From the NCBI GenBank assembly GCA_030696455.1, contig JAUYSH010000039.1, forward strand, positions 379-64,378: 64,000 bases of DNA, in the 5' to 3' direction. The notes under the pieces are model-generated. The model saw only the letters and a list, made by a program, of their open reading frames with translations, did no database searches and was not told the DNA's origin. The position numbers were made by a program, and so were the translations under genes. Below are positions 29,001-47,935 of the stretch, piece by piece (within the stretch, counting starts at the first letter, position 1; the number at the start of each line of letters is the position of its first letter). This DNA is from Elusimicrobiota bacterium (GTDB lineage Bacteria > Elusimicrobiota > Elusimicrobia > UBA1565 > UBA9628).

Positions 29001-29384
29001 ATGACCAAGAACGGCCGCACCCATGAGCGTTGGCCCAGCGACCTCGCCGTCGAGGTCTTCAGCGGGCCCGTGGGCGGCGTGCGCATCGGCGAGGGTGTCC
29101 TGCTCGACCTGAGCCTCACCGGCTGCCTGCTGCGCGTGCGCGCCCTGCTCAAGGTCGGCGCGACCTACCGCATCAGCGTCAAATGGAAAGACGGGCTGCT
29201 CGACCTGCCCGGACGCGTCGCCCGCGACGCCGGCCGCTCCGGCACGGACGCCGCGGCCCGCCATTACGGCGTCGCCTTCAACCTCACCGGCGGCCAGGAA
29301 AAGGAGCTTCGGGTCCTCGTCGACGTCGTGCGCCGCACCGAGAGGCCCGAGGACAAGGGCTTCATGCGCTCCTACTGGGGATAG
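29001..29384 (+). CDS. PilZ-domain (c-di-GMP-binding) protein
   Basis: RxxxR (RTHER) near the N-terminus and DxSxxG (DLSLTG). Confidence 0.75.
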   Translation: MTKNGRTHERWPSDLAVEVFSGPVGGVRIGEGVLLDLSLTGCLLRVRALLKVGATYRISVKWKDGLLDLPGRVARDAGRSGTDAAARHYGVAFNLTGGQEKELRVLVDVVRRTERPEDKGFMRSYWG

Positions 29385-29412: not shown

Positions 29413-29802
29413 TCAATTGCCAGCTGGCCGAAAAGCCTGAACGACGAGCGCATCCGCCTGCGGAAGCCCCTTGATCGGCTCGGAATCCTCGCGAAAAATC
29501 TCAAGCTCTCGAAGAAAGCCCCCAACGACATGAAGCAAGAAATGAAGGCCCATGCCGTCGGCATCCTTGGATTCCGCTTCGACGGGCACGCGTTGCAGGA
29601 CCGCGGCCTCATGCGCATCGGCAGGCACGACGAACACGATGCTTAGACAGCCGCAGCCGCATTCTTCAGCGACCCTTACCGTCTTAGCCTGCTCGCGTAG
29701 CGAGCCGCTTCCGGGGAAGTCCCTAGACAGCAGTCGCTGCAGCAGAGCCTCCTCATGAGGCCTGAGAGCACGCGGAGGGTTGATGGACTTTGGACCGTGC
29801 AT
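29413..29802 (-). CDS. putative immunity protein for the upstream toxin-domain protein
   Basis: 129-aa cytoplasmic ORF starting 1 nt after the stop of 29804-31090. Its pattern (LL.RLLS.DFPG...L..Q...V.V.......CGC.SI.F.........DADG..L.FLLHV..G.L.ELEI.R.D) resembles immunity proteins of polymorphic toxin loci. Tentative. Confidence 0.45.
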   Translation of the reverse strand: MHGPKSINPPRALRPHEEALLQRLLSRDFPGSGSLREQAKTVRVAEECGCGCLSIVFVVPADAHEAAVLQRVPVEAESKDADGMGLHFLLHVVGGFLRELEIFREDSEPIKGLPQADALVVQAFRPAGN

Positions 29803-29803
29803 T

Positions 29804-31090
29804 CTATTTCACAGGATAGTATGTGCCGACGTTCATCTGTCCCTGGCTGACGCGATAGGCTCGATACTCTATAACATGACCATCCACTTTGACTCGCCCC
29901 CAATGTCCTCCCGTCGAAGGCCTCAATTTCAACAAGGGCTCGAGCGCGTCGCGTATGGCCTGTTCGACCTTGCTGCGCTCGACTTTAGTGCCTTCCAGAT
30001 GGCGGCCGGCGTGCTCGGTCTTGAAGGTCACTTTAGGATCGATTCGATCGGGCTCTGCCGCCGTCGGCTCTTGCCCCGATTGGGAGTCCCCGGACATCAG
30101 CAGCGGCGCCGCCGCCGCCGCGCCCACGACCGCTACCTTAGTCGCGGTGACGCCGCTCGCCGTGACCGCGACGGCGCTCGAAGGCCCGCCGGCTGTCGCT
30201 AGCATCAGCCCCCCGCCTCCTATCCCGGCAGCGGGCAGCACGAGCCACGCCGTCAGCGCGACCGCGCCGACGCCGAGAGCGATCAAGGTCTTAGGGTTCT
30301 CGTGAATGAATTCCTTTGCACCGTCGGCAAGCTTGTCTCCGGTCGACTTGATCTTCTCGGCGCCGTCGTCGACGGCCTGCGAGGCACGGTCTCGGGCATT
30401 CTTTAGGCCGACTCCAATCCCCACGAGCCCGGCGCCGAAGGCCATGGCGTACGGCAGCCAAGGAGAACGCGGCCTGTTGGGCTCGGTTTCGTTCGGCTTG
30501 AGCCCCGGGACCGGGAGGGAGACGCCGAGCTTGGCCGCGGGCCTGAGCGGCCGGGTATCGAGGGAAAAACTCGCGGCGTTCGCTGGTGCTAGACCGCCGC
30601 CGGAAGGCGGCGGGGACGTTCCCAACATCGAGGGAGCGACACGGCCCTTTGAGGAATGGAGGATGCTGAGAGCGTCGGCATTTTTGGGATTTAGCCTGAG
30701 CGCCTCTTCGGCCAGGACTACGGCGGCCTGATAATCGCCGGCTTCGAGGCGTCCGGCGGCGGCGGCGATCAACTCGCCCCGCGGGCTCCCGTTTTCGTTC
30801 ACGAAGCGCGTCTTGCCTTCGAGGAGGGCACAGGCGGAGTCAAGGTCGACTAGCGCCTCCGGCGAGAGCTCCGCGCGGTCGAGTTCGTCGAGCTTGGTCT
30901 TCGCGACGAACCGTTTTTCGGGGGCGATTCTTTCCACAAGGCCATCTAAACTTTCAGCATCCTTCGGCTCACCGCCGGCGGCCTCCGCGAGCACGCGACG
31001 GACAGGCGTGTCGCGCGCGGGTGCGCTGTCGACGGTCTGAGCCATGACTGTGGTCGCGGCGAGCAAGAGGACGGTCGCGCGAATTTTCAT
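29804..31090 (-). CDS. secreted/membrane-spanning protein with C-terminal toxin-like domain (polymorphic-toxin architecture)
   Basis: Signal peptide MKIRATVLLLAATTVMAQT, then a TPR-like segment, 2-3 Gly/Ala-rich TM segments and a linker. The last ~85 aa read TEHAGRHLEG..VEQAI.....GRVKVDGHVIEYRAYRVSQGQMNVGTYYPV, reminiscent of small RelE/DUF4258-like RNase toxin domains. Confidence 0.5.
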   Translation of the reverse strand: MKIRATVLLLAATTVMAQTVDSAPARDTPVRRVLAEAAGGEPKDAESLDGLVERIAPEKRFVAKTKLDELDRAELSPEALVDLDSACALLEGKTRFVNENGSPRGELIAAAAGRLEAGDYQAAVVLAEEALRLNPKNADALSILHSSKGRVAPSMLGTSPPPSGGGLAPANAASFSLDTRPLRPAAKLGVSLPVPGLKPNETEPNRPRSPWLPYAMAFGAGLVGIGVGLKNARDRASQAVDDGAEKIKSTGDKLADGAKEFIHENPKTLIALGVGAVALTAWLVLPAAGIGGGGLMLATAGGPSSAVAVTASGVTATKVAVVGAAAAAPLLMSGDSQSGQEPTAAEPDRIDPKVTFKTEHAGRHLEGTKVERSKVEQAIRDALEPLLKLRPSTGGHWGRVKVDGHVIEYRAYRVSQGQMNVGTYYPVK

Positions 31091-31178: not shown

Positions 31179-32240
31179 CTAGAAGCTCCTGCTGGGGATA
31201 GCCGTTCCCGAGCGGGCGAGGAGCTCGCGCAGGGACAGGATCACCGGGAAGACCTCCTGGTTGCGGTCTTCGCCCTGCTCGTCCCACGCGAGCTGCTCGA
31301 GCTCGACGACGCGGCGGTCCTGGTCCAGTATGCCGTCGGTGAAGCGCGCGATCACCGGCCAGAAAAGGTCGAGCAGCCACGGAAGCGCCGGCCGGCGGAT
31401 CGACATCAGGCCGAAGGCCCGGTTCGTCCTCTGCTCGCGGTCCTGGGGGACGTAGGAGAGCCAAAGGTCGAGCGCCGGCGCCGCCTTTCCGGCGCGGCGG
31501 AAGGTCAAGGTCTGGTAGGGGTAGCTCGTGCGGATCGTCATCGTGTCGCGGTCCTGGGAGGACTCGTCGCGCTCGCCGATCATCAGCTTCTCGCCCCACG
31601 GCCGCTTGCCCCCCGTGCGCTTGAAGGTGTAGCGGGCCTCGACCCAGCCGTCGCCGCTGTCCCGTCCGAGAAGGGCGGTCCCGATGCCGCCCATCAAGGA
31701 GCGATGCAGGAACTGATGGTTCATGTCGAGCAGGTTCTCGTGCAAGAACGAGTAGTGGCAGCGGATGAGGCGGTCGAGCGCGCGCGTCTTGTAGGACGGG
31801 TCCGAGAAGGACGGCACCTCGGGGAATGCGGCGCCCGCGGCCTTCGCCGGATCTCCCGGGAACACGAAGACGAGGCCGTAGGCCTCGCGGCAGGGATAGG
31901 CGCGCACGCCGTTGGGCGCCGCGCCCGCCAGGTACGGCACGTCCACGCAGCGGCCCGTCGCGTCGTAGGTCCAGCCGTGATAGCCGCAGCGAAGGCGCTC
32001 GCCGCTGACGGCGCCCTTGCTGAGCGGGACCTGCCGGTGCGCGCAGCGGTCCTCGAGCGCGAACAGCGCGCCGCTCTCGGTGCGCACGAGCGCGATCGGC
32101 TCGCCCGCGAAGCGCGCCGGGACCGTCCCGGGCGCGGCGAGCTCGGCGGAGCGGGCGACGGGATGCCAAAAATCGGGATGAAGGCCGATTCGCCTGAGGT
32201 CCACGTCCTCAGTGTAGCAGGGGCCCCGCCGCCCCGCCAT
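31179..32240 (-). CDS. Rieske [2Fe-2S] non-haem-iron oxygenase (PAO/Tic55-like family)
   Basis: Rieske motif CAHRQVPL..N16..CGYHGWTY. Mononuclear-iron region ENLLDMNHQFLH. The start could also be the internal VDLRR GTG. Confidence 0.75.
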   Translation of the reverse strand: MAGRRGPCYTEDVDLRRIGLHPDFWHPVARSAELAAPGTVPARFAGEPIALVRTESGALFALEDRCAHRQVPLSKGAVSGERLRCGYHGWTYDATGRCVDVPYLAGAAPNGVRAYPCREAYGLVFVFPGDPAKAAGAAFPEVPSFSDPSYKTRALDRLIRCHYSFLHENLLDMNHQFLHRSLMGGIGTALLGRDSGDGWVEARYTFKRTGGKRPWGEKLMIGERDESSQDRDTMTIRTSYPYQTLTFRRAGKAAPALDLWLSYVPQDREQRTNRAFGLMSIRRPALPWLLDLFWPVIARFTDGILDQDRRVVELEQLAWDEQGEDRNQEVFPVILSLRELLARSGTAIPSRSF

Positions 32241-32295: not shown

Positions 32296-33324
32296 TCATC
32301 CGAGAGCGCGCAGGGCGGCCGCGGCCTCGGGATGAGCCGCCGCGAGGCGCTTGGCGCCGCGCGCGAGGCGAGCGTGCCAGCCGCGCGCTCGCAGCGCGTC
32401 GTGCGCGAGGCGCAGGTCGCCGGGGCGCGCCTCGGCGAGCGCTTCCAGCAGCTGCGCGGCCTGCGCGAGATCCTTGCCCGCCTTCGACTCCTGCGAGGCC
32501 GGCCGCTCGGGGGCGATGAGGACCTTGTGCAGCGCGAAACGCGCCGGGGAGGGCACGCTCACCAGGAAGCCGCCCGCGTCGAGCACGGCCGCCTTTTCCG
32601 GGTTCTCGATCAGGTAGTCCATGAACGGCAAGGGCTGAGCGCTCGTCTTGAGCCGCGGCATCGCGACCGGCGCGCCGGCCTTGCCCGGCGTGAGGAAGTC
32701 CACGCGCAAGGACTCGCCGCGCACCTTGAACGAGGTCGACGCGTGCCGCGAATCGAGGCCCGGGACCGGCAGGAAGCCCATCTCCAGACGCTCGAGCGCG
32801 CCCTCGGCGTCGGCGGTCGCGCCGGAGGCGGCGAGCAGGGAGACGGCCGCGAGATCGAGGTCGTCGGTGCGCAGGGAGGCGCCGGTCAAGCGCATGCCGA
32901 GCAGGTTTCCGATGACGCCGAACGCGTGCGTGCCGACGAGGACGGCGCCGGCCTCGAAGACGCCGGCGTCGGCGAACGCCTTGAGCACGCGGGCGGCGCG
33001 TACGCCCATGGACCAGCCGCCCCCGGCGCGCGTCTGGGCGCAGAGGCGCTCGAGGCCGGCGCGCTCCTTCTCGAACTCAGGCTTCTCGTTCTTGAAGCGC
33101 GCGGCGAGCCGCTCGAGCGCCGGGCCGGCGCGGCCGAGGTAAAGCTGGCGGACCTTGCCCCCCGGCTCGGAGTACTGGAAGTAGGCGTAGGCCTCGCCCT
33201 TGACCGTCTTCGTCGTGAACGTGCCCGGCGCCTTCCCGACGCCGCGGCGCGCGGATTCGGCGAGGAGCCGTTCGAGCAGCTCCGCGTAGAGGGTCTGGGT
33301 CTCGGCGGGGAGAAGGGAGGCCAT
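32296..33324 (-). CDS. GSU2403-like nucleotidyltransferase-fold protein (AbiEii-related)
   Basis: N-terminus GTFTTKTVKGEAYAYFQYSEPGGKVRQLYLGRA, then ...LVGTHAFGVIGNLLG....SLRTDDLDLA, as I recall for GSU2403-family NTase-fold proteins. Start at MASLL (33324). Confidence 0.55.
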   Translation of the reverse strand: MASLLPAETQTLYAELLERLLAESARRGVGKAPGTFTTKTVKGEAYAYFQYSEPGGKVRQLYLGRAGPALERLAARFKNEKPEFEKERAGLERLCAQTRAGGGWSMGVRAARVLKAFADAGVFEAGAVLVGTHAFGVIGNLLGMRLTGASLRTDDLDLAAVSLLAASGATADAEGALERLEMGFLPVPGLDSRHASTSFKVRGESLRVDFLTPGKAGAPVAMPRLKTSAQPLPFMDYLIENPEKAAVLDAGGFLVSVPSPARFALHKVLIAPERPASQESKAGKDLAQAAQLLEALAEARPGDLRLAHDALRARGWHARLARGAKRLAAAHPEAAAALRALG

Positions 33325-33397
33325 AGTTATACGCAGGTTCAGTGTAACATGCGTATAACTTACCGTCAAGGCCGATCAGGGAGGCAGGTTTATATTG

Positions 33398-45384: not shown

Positions 45385-45471
45385 ATCCTAATAGCCTAAC
45401 AGGCAAATAAGGGGAAATCAACGCCCCCGAGGGAACTTTTCGCTCCCCAATTCGACCGTCAGCGGACAGTG

Positions 45472-45500
45472 TTGACAATAGGCACACATCGTGATACCCT
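45472..45500 (+). promoter_or_regulatory. putative promoter TTGACA-17-TACCCT
   Basis: -35 at 45472-45477, -10 at 45495-45500, 11 nt before the ATG at 45512. Confidence 0.5.
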
Positions 45501-45511
45501 CGTAACGGGCA

Positions 45512-45829
45512 ATGACCATGGCCAAGAAAAAAAATCCCTTCAAGAACCTCAAGCTCGATCCCGAGGAAAAGGAACTGCTCCGCTCGCTCGACGCGGGCGA
45601 GTGGAAGCTCGTGGACAATCAAGAGGCAGAGCGCAAGCGCTATCAGTCCTATGCCCGCTACACGCTCAAAAAGCTCAACAAAAATCGGCGGGTGAACATT
45701 CGCCTGAACGAAATGGATCTCAGCGCCCTGCGCCGCAAGGCGCACGAGGAAGGCCTGCCGTATCAAAGCCTCATGGCCAGCGTCCTCCACAAGTACGTGA
45801 CCGGCCGCCTCGTCGAGAAACGGCCCTAG
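45512..45829 (+). CDS. BrnA/CopG-like ribbon-helix-helix antitoxin homologue (no adjacent toxin gene)
   Basis: Paralogous to the brnA at 48190-48438. Shared pattern L..EE......L..GE(W/Y)..V....E.........K...(V/L)NIR(L/V)N..DL....(R/K)KA...G(L/I)PYQ(S/T)L....LH(K/H)Y. Confidence 0.65.
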
Positions 45830-45867
45830 CAAGGGAACTTTTCGCCCCCCTCATTCGTATGGTAAGT

Positions 45868-47091
45868 ATGAACCATACGAACGCCATCCACGTCCGCCCC
45901 GGCGAATCGGGGCGCCTCATCGTCGTTCTTCCCTATTCCTCCGAAAGGGTGGCGAAGATCAAGACCGTCCCCGGCCGCCTTTGGCACGGGCCGGAGAAGT
46001 ACTGGTCCGTGCCGTTCGACCCGGAGGCCGCCGCCCGCCTTCAAACGCTCTTCAAGGGCGACCGCCTCGAGCTCGACGCCTCGCTTCGCCCTGGAGCGGC
46101 CGTACTGAGCCCAGCCTCGGACGCGCTCGTGGAAAGGGTCCGCGCCGCCGTCCGCGCCCGCCACTTCAGCCCCCGAACGGGAGAGATCTATGCGGGCTGG
46201 ATCCGCCGTTTTCTCGCCCAAGCGGGCCCCGCACCGGAAAAGCTCGGCGAAGTCGAGATCGGCCGGTTTCTCTCCTCCTTGGCCACCGACGCCCACGTGA
46301 GCGCCTCGACGCAGAACCAAGCCCTCCACTCGATCCTCTTCTTCTACGAACATGTGCTCGGCATGGATATCGCGCGGCTGGACGGGGTCGTCCGGGCCAA
46401 GCGGGCCGTCAGAGTCCCGGTCGTTCTCAGCCGCCACGAGGTCCTCGCCGTGCTCAACTGCATGTCCGGCACTCCGCGCCTCATGGCGACACTTCTCTAC
46501 GGCGCGGGCCTGCGCGTGCTCGAGTGCTGCCATCTGAGGGTCAAGGACATCGACTTCGACCAGAACCAACTCGTCGTTCGCGCCGGCAAGGGCAACAAAG
46601 ACCGGTGCACGCCTCTTCCCGCCTCCAGCGTCGCGCCGCTGCGCCTGCACCTGGACGCCGTGCGCCGCCAGCACCAGGAAGACCTCCAAAAAGGCCTCGG
46701 CTGCGTCGAGCTTCCCGACGCGCTCTCGCGCAAGTATCCCAACGCCCCCAAGGAGTGGGGCTGGCAATGGGTGTTTCCCGCCACCAGCCATTACACCGAC
46801 CGCCTGACCGGCCAAAGGCGCCGCCACCATCTACATGAATCCGTTCTGCAGCGCGCCTTCAAGGTCGCCCGCCTCAAGGCGGATCTCTCCAAGCCCGCGA
46901 GCTGCCACACCCTGCGGCACTCCTTCGCCACCCACCTCCTCGAGGATGGCTACGACATCCGAACCATCCAGGAATTGCTGGGCCACAACGACGTCAGCAC
47001 GACCATGATTTACACCCACGTCCTCAACCGGGGCGGCCGCGGCGTCCAAAGCCCGGCGGATCGCCTGGGCCTTGACGGGAGCCGGGCATGA
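45868..47091 (+). CDS. intI: integron integrase (tyrosine recombinase, IntI)
   Basis: Catalytic R/HxxR/Y context ([33 protein letters not shown]). IntI-specific insertion [47 protein letters not shown]. An alternative ATG lies at 45859. Confidence 0.9.
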
Positions 47092-47129
47092 TGTATACTC
47101 ATTGTAGATACATACCGGAGCTTGATGCC

Positions 47130-47372
47130 ATGAACGCGACCGTCCAAAAATGGGGCAACAGCCTGGCCCTTCGCATACCGAGCTCCGTCGCCAAGGATAT
47201 TCGATTGCGCCAAGGATCTCCCGTCGAGGTCGTCGTCGAGAACGGACGCATGATCGTCAAGCCGACGAAAAAGCGCAAACCGTCTCTTTCCCTCCTCCTC
47301 AAAAACATAACGAAAGATAATCGCCATGCCGAGCAGGGCTGGGGCGCGCCCATCGGCAAGGAAGCCTGGTAA
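47130..47372 (+). CDS. mazE: MazE/AbrB-SpoVT-family antitoxin
   Basis: [30 protein letters not shown], the SpoVT/AbrB swapped-hairpin motif. TAATG overlap with mazF. Confidence 0.85.
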
Positions 47373-47704
47373 TGGCCTACTGCCCGAAGCAGGGCGACGT
47401 AGTCTGGCTCTCGTTCAACCCCCAGGCGGGGCATGAACAGGCCGGGGTTCGACCCGCCCTGACGCTTTCTCCCGAGTCGTACAATCGCAAGGCGGGGCTG
47501 GCGCTCTTCTGCCCGATCACGACCCAGGCCAAAGGCTACCCGTTCGAGGTCCCCCTGCCGGCCGGGCTCAAGGCGTCCGGCGTCGTGCTTTCGGATCAGG
47601 TGAGGAGCCTCGATTGGCAGGCTCGGAATGCCCGGTTTTCATGCAGGGTGCCTGCGGGTGTGCTTGCCGACGTGCAGAGCCTGCTCGAAGTCCTCCTAAG
47701 CTGA
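47372..47704 (+). CDS. mazF: MazF/PemK-family endoribonuclease toxin
   Basis: P.QGDVVWLSFNPQAGHEQAG.RPAL.LSP..YN...GL...CPITT..KGYPFEV.L.....G.VL.DQV.S.DW, the MazF pattern. Confidence 0.85.
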   Translation: MAYCPKQGDVVWLSFNPQAGHEQAGVRPALTLSPESYNRKAGLALFCPITTQAKGYPFEVPLPAGLKASGVVLSDQVRSLDWQARNARFSCRVPAGVLADVQSLLEVLLS

Positions 47705-47828
47705 CCCCCCGCCCGCGCTAGCCTGACCCCGCCTGCAAGGTTTGCCGATTTCTATATTCCGCCACAAACCTGGCATACCCCTTGTTTTCCAATTACAATC
47801 CGACAATACTGACTATTCAGGTCACTTT

Positions 47829-47859
47829 GTTAGCCTGACCAATCTAATAGTAGTTAGAC
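47829..47859 (+). other. putative attI core (two GTTAGNC boxes; crossover box GTTAGAC at 47853-47859)
   Basis: GTTAGCC (47829-47835) and GTTAGAC (47853-47859). The latter is the exact reverse complement of the R'' box GTCTAAC that opens the first attC (48447). The extent of attI to the left is unknown. Confidence 0.5.
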
Positions 47860-47895
47860 GTCCTATATGCGCAAACGAACGGCATTTAGAACCCC

Positions 47896-47924
47896 TTGAC
47901 TTGTATATACATTTGAATTACACT
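47896..47924 (+). promoter_or_regulatory. putative cassette-internal promoter TTGACT-17-TACACT for brnTA
   Basis: -35 at 47896-47901, -10 at 47919-47924, ATG at 47936. Confidence 0.55.
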
Positions 47925-47935
47925 AAATAAGGATC

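Follow-up and report, generated by a model that had tools for sequence, protein, structure and literature searches.

Among polymorphic toxins, a Sec-dependent ('T2SS / signal-peptide-only') class with TPR or Sel1 repeats has been described (Zhang et al. 2012, Biol Direct 7:18, Table 1; PMC3482391). A diffusible toxin of Staphylococcus aureus, S8-PTS/BetaH-Ntox35, is secreted by Sec, ends in a predicted BECR ribonuclease (RNase) tip of ~78 amino acids (aa) and is paired with a cytoplasmic immunity protein, its pre-toxin part aiding membrane targeting (Li, Tan & Zhang 2022, PMC9424270; Mwangi et al. 2025, bioRxiv 10.1101/2025.07.24.666436). Ntox35 itself has been described as a BECR domain that carries two histidines near its N-terminus ('H, KH') and keeps a Ser/Thr near its C-terminus (Zhang et al. 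2012, PMC3482391). Colicin-like BECR RNases have their active-site residues on the pre-alpha helix and the final strand, and RelE-like members have a central C-terminal tyrosine (preprint, bioRxiv 10.64898/2026.08.28.747851). Here we analyse a 64,000-nucleotide (nt) stretch of DNA, hereafter the window, from an Elusimicrobiota bacterium (GenBank assembly GCA_030696455.1, contig JAUYSH010000039.1, positions 379 to 64,378; G+C ~67%), in which two adjacent minus-strand genes lie at 29804..31090 and 29413..29802. An earlier sequence-only reading of this stretch had seen in them a secreted, membrane-spanning protein with a toxin-like tip and a coupled immunity-like gene. Our analysis makes it very likely that the two genes form a polymorphic toxin–immunity cassette, probably acquired horizontally, in which a presumably exported toxin, probably an RNase, is paired with a putative antidote of the Pfam family DUF6984.

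The upstream gene encodes a 428-aa protein followed by a TAG stop, and the downstream gene a protein of 129 aa. The list of open reading frames (ORFs) and the junction sequence, AAA TAG A ATG, bear out the gene layout proposed earlier, with a spacer of exactly 1 nt. The 428-aa protein has an identical entry in NCBI (Q8T11_05290, a hypothetical protein of an Elusimicrobiota metagenome-assembled genome), and orthologues 70–79% identical exist, three of them (70–78%) returned by a search with residues 1–342. An entry from the same assembled genome, also hypothetical, covers part of the 129-aa protein with 99% identity. The public annotation of the immunity gene (Q8T11_05285) takes an internal GTG start and yields 74 aa; because homologues conserve the first 55 residues, with F29, G31, L35 and Q38 invariant in their alignments, we take the 129-aa form to be correct and the 74-aa annotation to be wrong. 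A promoter-like match over the toxin stop and immunity start was disregarded, as transcription from it would begin inside the immunity gene. A scan of the window with hidden Markov models (HMMs) found one toxin domain and one DUF6984 gene, with no second copy of either.

The C-terminal toxin domain occupies residues 351–428 (29807..30040, minus strand; HMM E=5e-32) and is a discrete, conserved unit of about 76 aa. A word-indexed search with it returned a single relative, P0001, a short ORF directly followed by a DUF6984 gene at an overlapping TAATG junction. A two-sequence profile, run exhaustively against 1.84 billion representatives of clusters at 50% identity, returned 582 cluster representatives at E<=1e-3, with 276 of them at E<=1e-10, and the family spans more than 12 phyla. 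Its consensus reads xITFGHGARHLxGTGL..VExAI......S.TGSFWGRVxVxG..IEYRAYTL..GtINVGTYYxP, in which H, R, H, E, G, R, T and Y are conserved at 92–99%. The window copy retains H360, R363, H364, E376, G398, R410, T423, Y424 and Y425; across the family H360 and the R363-H364 pair are conserved at 93–99%, and T423 at 98%. The domain is a protein tip almost without exception, ending at most 7 residues from the C-terminus in 150 of 151 proteins of between 76 and 2596 aa. Among the carriers, the long ones are Rhs/YD-shell proteins, including those of Paraburkholderia (locus L058) and locus L028; mid-sized carriers include PT-HINT proteins (6/86) and proteins with RHS repeats (7/86); in Lachnospiraceae (L063) the carrier is an LXG protein; and other carriers have only a signal peptide or are short and stand alone. 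The family is new: widespread, and without a curated model.

The 129-aa protein matches DUF6984 (PF22480) over profile positions 2–101 of 101, with 45 bits against a cutoff of 24.6 (E=1.2e-11). A genome scan limited to one genome per species found 67 loci encoding the toxin domain, and the HMMs of both families were run over the six-frame ORFs of these loci. Of these, 65 have a complete domain and DNA beyond it, and in every one a DUF6984 ORF comes next on the same strand, mostly within 50 nt; in the other two the contig ends at that point. The loci belong to Actinomycetota, Acidobacteriota, Chloroflexota, Planctomycetota, Gemmatimonadota, Cyanobacteria, Bacteroidota/Ignavibacteria, Patescibacteria, Firmicutes, Clostridia, Streptococcus, Paraburkholderia, Alphaproteobacteria, Beggiatoa-like bacteria and Verrucomicrobiota, and the pairing also holds in loci L001–L007. 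Distances among toxin domains and among their DUF6984 partners correlate (Mantel r=0.70 over 57 pairs, a value reached by none of 2000 permutations), which fits co-inheritance as a cassette and is no proof of binding. DUF6984 proteins have no signal peptide and are acidic, with a median isoelectric point (pI) of 4.8. A domain search with the window's 129-aa member found no helix-turn-helix, ribbon-helix-helix or AbrB match. The AlphaFold2 model of DUF6984 is confident, with a predicted local distance difference test score (pLDDT) of 92, and Foldseek found no structural match for it in the PDB (best E=0.26, template modelling score (TM) 0.23). Our full-text literature search returned no paper naming DUF6984 or PF22480, nor is the family named in the main text of the preprint that classified BECR domains in 2026. 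From its constant position and its co-variation with the toxin domain, we infer that DUF6984 would be the immunity protein of this specific toxin domain, a first role for an uncharacterised family.

DUF6984 genes also occur in rearranged settings. Three loci (L005–7) hold a remnant of the toxin domain followed by DUF6984 and Barstar, L048 holds tandem modules, and in L080 a truncated toxin domain and DUF6984 follow a 2744-aa Rhs gene. Distant members stand alone, with no toxin domain upstream, in L079 (Cohnella thailandensis) and L081. The neighbour is a ThsB_TIR gene in one case and a RES-domain gene in the other, so that these may be orphan immunity genes within islands of conflict systems.

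Further evidence for a polymorphic system comes from the rest of the 428-aa protein. With residues 1–342 as the query, we found one scaffold carrying three different C-terminal domains, each with its own downstream gene or genes. P0176 (452 aa) is 41% identical over 98% of the scaffold, and its tip is a barnase-type ribonuclease (PF00545) followed by Barstar. A second ribonuclease–Barstar example, L078 from a Joint Genome Institute metagenome, has 53% scaffold identity. P0177 (locus L077) has the same scaffold, split by a frameshift; its tip is of a third, unassigned kind, and two small ORFs come next. Alignment A8 of these proteins is conserved through '...VVGAAAAAPLLMxGD', and beyond this point the sequences are unrelated. 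The converse is seen in P0024 (513 aa), where the N-terminus has strongly diverged (38–41% identity overall) and the toxin domain and its partner are nonetheless highly conserved, DUF6984 being 70% identical. The toxin domain is thus an exchangeable C-terminal cassette with DUF6984 as its constant partner, and the scaffold carries alternative pairs. Swapping of this kind was the check that the sequence-only reading had set for itself, and it came out positive; with it, the toxin-like domain and the immunity-like gene that it had picked out become a conserved tip family and a DUF6984 member with an unbroken record of partnership. Three genomic hallmarks of polymorphic toxin systems, sensu Zhang et al. 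(2012), are therefore present: a C-terminal tip, a downstream immunity gene and swapping. A metagenome scan for the scaffold added a single locus, the barnase variant L078, which suggests that the scaffold is rare.

The same observations bear on whether the tip is a toxin at all. It could instead be a structural or adhesive tip, with DUF6984 as a chaperone or assembly factor: the domain belongs to no curated family, and the roles of both proteins rest on prediction. We consider this highly improbable, since the domain takes the canonical toxin slot after the 'DPxGL' motif of Rhs cores and after HINT, is interchangeable with barnase on one scaffold and keeps an invariant catalytic-type set of His, Arg, His, Glu, Arg, Thr and Tyr, and since orphan DUF6984 adjoins Barstar as in immunity islands.

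Two features of the scaffold relatives deserve separate mention. The third variant tip (P0177 C-terminus; L077 2348–2887) is a domain of ~100 aa, …KHARRPSTKLRP…GFGVRYSSDGKFLYFLE, and neither it nor its two ORFs (79 and 97 aa) has a Pfam, PADLOC or PHROG match; together they may be another undescribed toxin–immunity pair. A DUF7674 gene (E=4e-11) comes after DUF6984 in the nearest orthologous loci (L002 2221–2589, L003 755–1123). It is not present in the window and may be a further orphan immunity gene.

The scaffold begins with a Sec-type signal peptide (residues 1 to ~18, 31037..31090, minus strand), MKIRATVLLLAATTVMA, with QT following the cleavage point. By inspection it has a basic n-region, a hydrophobic core and V-M-A at -3..-1, a pattern kept in the orthologues and scaffold variants. 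An exported N-terminal region of ~190 aa contains a TPR-like segment (residues 105–143, 30662..30778, minus strand). Its TPR_19, TPR_14 and TPR_2 matches are all below threshold in the window protein, the best being TPR_19 with 21 bits against 25 (E=3.3e-4); the equivalent segment of the L077 homologue matches TPR_14 above threshold (30.8 bits against 23.5). Further downstream is a Gly/Ala-rich hydrophobic region (residues 211–332, 30095..30460, minus strand) that ends in the junction motif APLLMxGD. Hydropathy places hydrophobic segments at 211–230, 266–301 and 304–334, and in finer detail the region consists of 211–230, a K/R-rich loop at 231–266, 267–288, a GGGG turn and 304–332. Among variants with different toxins it is the best-conserved stretch of the scaffold, 'NPKTxIAxGxGxVAxxxWLxLPAAGxGGGGxxLATAGG'. 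An acidic Ser/Gly/Gln/Glu linker, SGDSQSGQEPTAAEPDRIDP, follows at residues 333–350 (30041..30094, minus strand; alignment A8). Pfam and HMM domain searches of the 428-aa protein found no domain of type VI or type VII secretion systems (T6SS, T7SS), of contact-dependent inhibition (CDI) or of Rhs. The architecture sketched by the sequence-only reading (signal peptide, two to three hydrophobic segments with a linker, no such delivery domain) was recovered, and its TPR-like segment gained the backing of a homologue where the window protein itself falls short. PHROGs likens the Gly-rich region to tape-measure proteins at E=0.05–0.8 only, a likeness we treated as compositional.

A related observation concerns the family at large. 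In 43 of 124 members from the set P0023–P0172 (e.g. P0045, P0075, P0090 and P0140), a count for which there is no background rate, a Gly/Ala-rich hydrophobic 17-mer (Kyte-Doolittle >=1.5) lies at most 75 residues upstream of the toxin domain; it is seen also in Rhs carriers and may be a membrane-entry helper that travels with the toxin.

The activity of the toxin domain was approached through its predicted structure. An AlphaFold2 model built from a 64-sequence alignment has a pLDDT of 83, a predicted TM score of 0.75 and a beta-alpha-alpha-beta-beta-beta topology, with strands at 8–11, 50–57, 60–70 and 73–82 and helices at 13–20 and 27–42. Mapping conservation onto the model places H360, R363 and H364 on the first (pre-alpha) helix and T423, Y424 and Y425 on the last strand, so that both the core topology and the active-site layout agree with published descriptions of BECR domains. 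The top Foldseek matches in the PDB are HigB2 (5jaa_D, E=0.012, TM 0.55), then BrnT, YafQ and ParE, with further weak matches to a Serratia CDI toxin and XendoU/Nsp15; against viral structures the model gave only unnamed, non-significant matches. Sequence searches of the PDB with the single domain and with profiles of the toxin domain and DUF6984 gave nothing of note; P450 and topoisomerase matches at E ~1 were set aside as chance. The guess of a RelE/DUF4258-type BECR module made from sequence alone fits the modelled topology and the type of weak Foldseek match, and fails as to sequence membership: DUF4258/Ntox49, RelE and ParE Pfam models do not match the window domain at E<=1, and DUF4258, RelE and ParE do not match any of 64 members or the family consensus at E<=10. 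The domain does show the Ntox35-like pattern of two N-terminal histidines and a C-terminal Ser/Thr, a resemblance only. Since fold class and conserved-residue layout fit BECR RNases, we judge that the domain is probably a metal-independent RNase of the RelE-like or colicin-like group, a modelled assignment held with somewhat less assurance than the toxin–immunity pairing.

The residues that favour an RNase also allow a different chemistry. H360 and H364 are spaced i, i+4 on the predicted helix, a geometry also used by metal sites, and the domain might be a metal-binding mini metallo-hydrolase or nuclease (HxxxH plus E376). It might also be non-catalytic, like ParE acting on gyrase, since ParE is among the weak Foldseek matches (7r5a, 8c24) and no RNase family model matches the domain by sequence. 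To our knowledge, however, ParE-type toxins have no such invariant histidines, and most of the top matches are RNases (HigB2, BrnT, YafQ, EndoU, CDI toxin). With His/Arg/His on its pre-alpha helix and Thr/Tyr on its final strand, the domain has the layout described for BECR RNases, and for Ntox35 in particular (PMC3482391; bioRxiv 10.64898/2026.08.28.747851), and a sister variant on the same scaffold bears a barnase-type RNase. A toxin–immunity pair with a non-RNase toxin is thus unlikely in our estimate.

Several findings weigh against an exported RNase toxin with a dedicated antidote. The toxin domain has no sequence match in Pfam, NCBIfam, PADLOC or the PDB, and Foldseek gave it no significant fold match in the PDB at E<=0.001, the best TM being the 0.55 of HigB2. 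Ntox35 (PF15534), the one known toxin family to which any sequence link was seen, matched only two of the 64 members, below threshold (E=0.023–0.054, 14.6 bits against 23.6); these alignments are collinear over profile positions 9–72 of 78, and we read the likeness as a lead to remote homology and not as membership. The pI of the domain is not uniformly basic, with a median of 6.3 and 9.75 in the window copy. The Mantel correlation may reflect mere shared descent of the cassette. Across the compared loci no secretion or processing gene is kept beside it; the neighbouring genes change from one locus to the next, and with them any linkage to an exporter or protease of its own is lost. Lastly, three membrane crossings after the signal peptide would leave the toxin domain in the producer's own cytoplasm.

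This last topology keeps alive another explanation, at low probability. The cassette could be a membrane-tethered, intracellular toxin–antitoxin or defence module in which a cytoplasm-facing toxin is held by DUF6984 and freed on an envelope signal received through the TPR region. Besides the three hydrophobic segments, which would put the C-terminus in the cytoplasm, its fold class is like that of the type II toxins RelE, HigB and BrnT, the toxin domain and DUF6984 also occur as short stand-alone pairs (L001 and many proteins of 76–120 aa), and lone DUF6984 genes lie beside the ThsB_TIR and RES genes. However, the K/R-rich loop at 231–266 and the acidic flank after 332 would favour an external C-terminus by the positive-inside rule. 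The domain also tips exported Rhs, LXG and PT-HINT toxins, and the scaffold exchanges it for barnase with Barstar, a classic secreted-toxin pair. Nor does the cassette resemble type II systems such as RelBE/HigBA in its make-up: the toxin forms part of a larger protein with a signal peptide, DUF6984 carries no DNA-binding antitoxin domain, and PADLOC gives no match. We therefore regard a tethered module as very unlikely.

An exported toxin with its immunity protein remains the preferred reading, and its steps can be set out as a proposal. The toxin and immunity genes would be co-translated. A signal peptide comes first, so the 428-aa protein would presumably be exported by Sec, and the hydrophobic region would then anchor it in a membrane or help the toxin to cross one; delivery would in this way combine Sec with membrane insertion. 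In a competitor's cytoplasm the toxin domain would most likely kill by cleaving RNA, as its fold class and conservation suggest. In the producer's cytoplasm DUF6984 would bind and block the toxin, an expectation that follows from strict synteny and co-variation. Both the toxicity of the domain and its neutralisation by DUF6984 are predictions from the genomic pattern.

By its sequence features, the cassette is best placed among the signal-peptide-only ('T2SS/Sec-dependent') polymorphic toxins with TPR repeats of Zhang et al. (2012). As in these, a signal peptide is the sole recognisable export signal, the body contains repeats, the C-terminal toxin cassette is exchangeable and the immunity gene lies directly downstream. 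Unlike these, the window scaffold has a conserved Gly/Ala-rich hydrophobic block of two to three segments between the repeats and the toxin, a block missing from the pre-toxin and trafficking modules that Zhang et al. (2012) list, and there is no processing peptidase. The nearest functional analogue is the BetaH-Ntox35 toxin of S. aureus. It shares with the window cassette a signal peptide, a small predicted BECR tip, a cytoplasmic immunity protein, and two N-terminal histidines with a C-terminal Ser/Thr. However, the window cassette lacks BetaH and a linked S8 peptidase, its host is a diderm, its hydrophobic block is conserved, its immunity protein belongs to DUF6984 and its Ntox35 score is sub-threshold.

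Rhs/YD, PT-HINT and LXG polymorphic toxins use the same C-terminal domain family followed by DUF6984, but the window protein has none of their delivery modules. The RelE-superfamily toxins (HigB2 5jaa, BrnT 3u97, YafQ 4mmg), colicins D/E5 and CdiA-CT are likewise small alpha+beta domains with helices followed by an antiparallel sheet, and the toxin domain shares with RelE-superfamily and colicin-like BECR tRNases conserved residues on the pre-alpha helix and last strand. It differs from them in having no sequence-model match or significant structural E-value, in its exported carriers and in its partner, DUF6984 in place of a DNA-binding antitoxin. Barnase–Barstar meets the cassette at two points, in the sister scaffold variant that ends in a PF00545 RNase with Barstar and in the loci where DUF6984 adjoins Barstar (L005–7), yet the window toxin and immunity proteins are unrelated to this pair in sequence.

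A bolder reading, possible but in our view doubtful, would join two proposals. In the first, the scaffold would be an undescribed, self-sufficient delivery module of diderms, exported by Sec, whose hairpin 'WLxLPAAGxGGGGxxLATAGG' carries RNase cassettes across a membrane without type V, VI or VII secretion systems. In the second, the toxin domain and DUF6984 would together be a new multi-phylum family whose immunity fold has no solved counterpart. An uncharacterised Pfam family with a confident predicted fold and no PDB match gains a concrete, testable role, and a new, widespread toxin family, present in more than 12 phyla, is found on Rhs, LXG, HINT and Sec-only carriers. An Elusimicrobiota-like N-terminal carrier swaps RNase cassettes with no known specialised secretion domain, which makes its delivery route an experimentally approachable question. 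Polymorphic toxins, BECR RNases and a downstream immunity gene are an established paradigm, and the present findings extend its catalogue without overturning it.

Base composition bears on the origin of the cassette. The G+C content at third codon positions (GC3) is 0.75 for the toxin gene as a whole, 0.64 for the toxin domain, 0.75–0.80 for the scaffold and 0.64 for the immunity gene, against 0.91–0.93 for the flanking Rieske, nucleotidyltransferase and PilZ genes. Given this difference (0.64–0.75 against 0.91–0.93), the cassette is probably foreign, and its composition points to horizontal acquisition by the Elusimicrobiota genome.

The neighbouring genes are as follows. Directly upstream of the toxin gene is a Rieske/VanA_C oxygenase (31179–32240, minus strand). 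Of the NCBIfam models, sterol 4beta-methyl monooxygenase SdmA fits it best (E=8e-47); with 160 bits, far under the 600-bit cutoff, the protein is only a relative within that oxygenase family. Further upstream of the cassette is an NTP_transf_8 nucleotidyltransferase (32296–33369, minus strand; E=6e-52), and a single-domain PilZ protein (29001–29384, plus strand) converges on the immunity gene; both have a host-like high GC3 of 0.91–0.92, unlike the cassette. A mobile island lies ~15 kb from the cassette, at window positions 45469–52600. Towards its end, an IS110-family transposase (49052–50161, minus strand) is followed by a stretch of ~0.50 G+C, against a window mean of ~0.67, whose four ORFs (50273–50785, 50891–51301, 51539–51985 and 52206–52598) have no Pfam match. 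The island opens with a tyrosine integrase (45469–47091), followed by MazE (47088–47372) and MazF/PemK (47372–47704).

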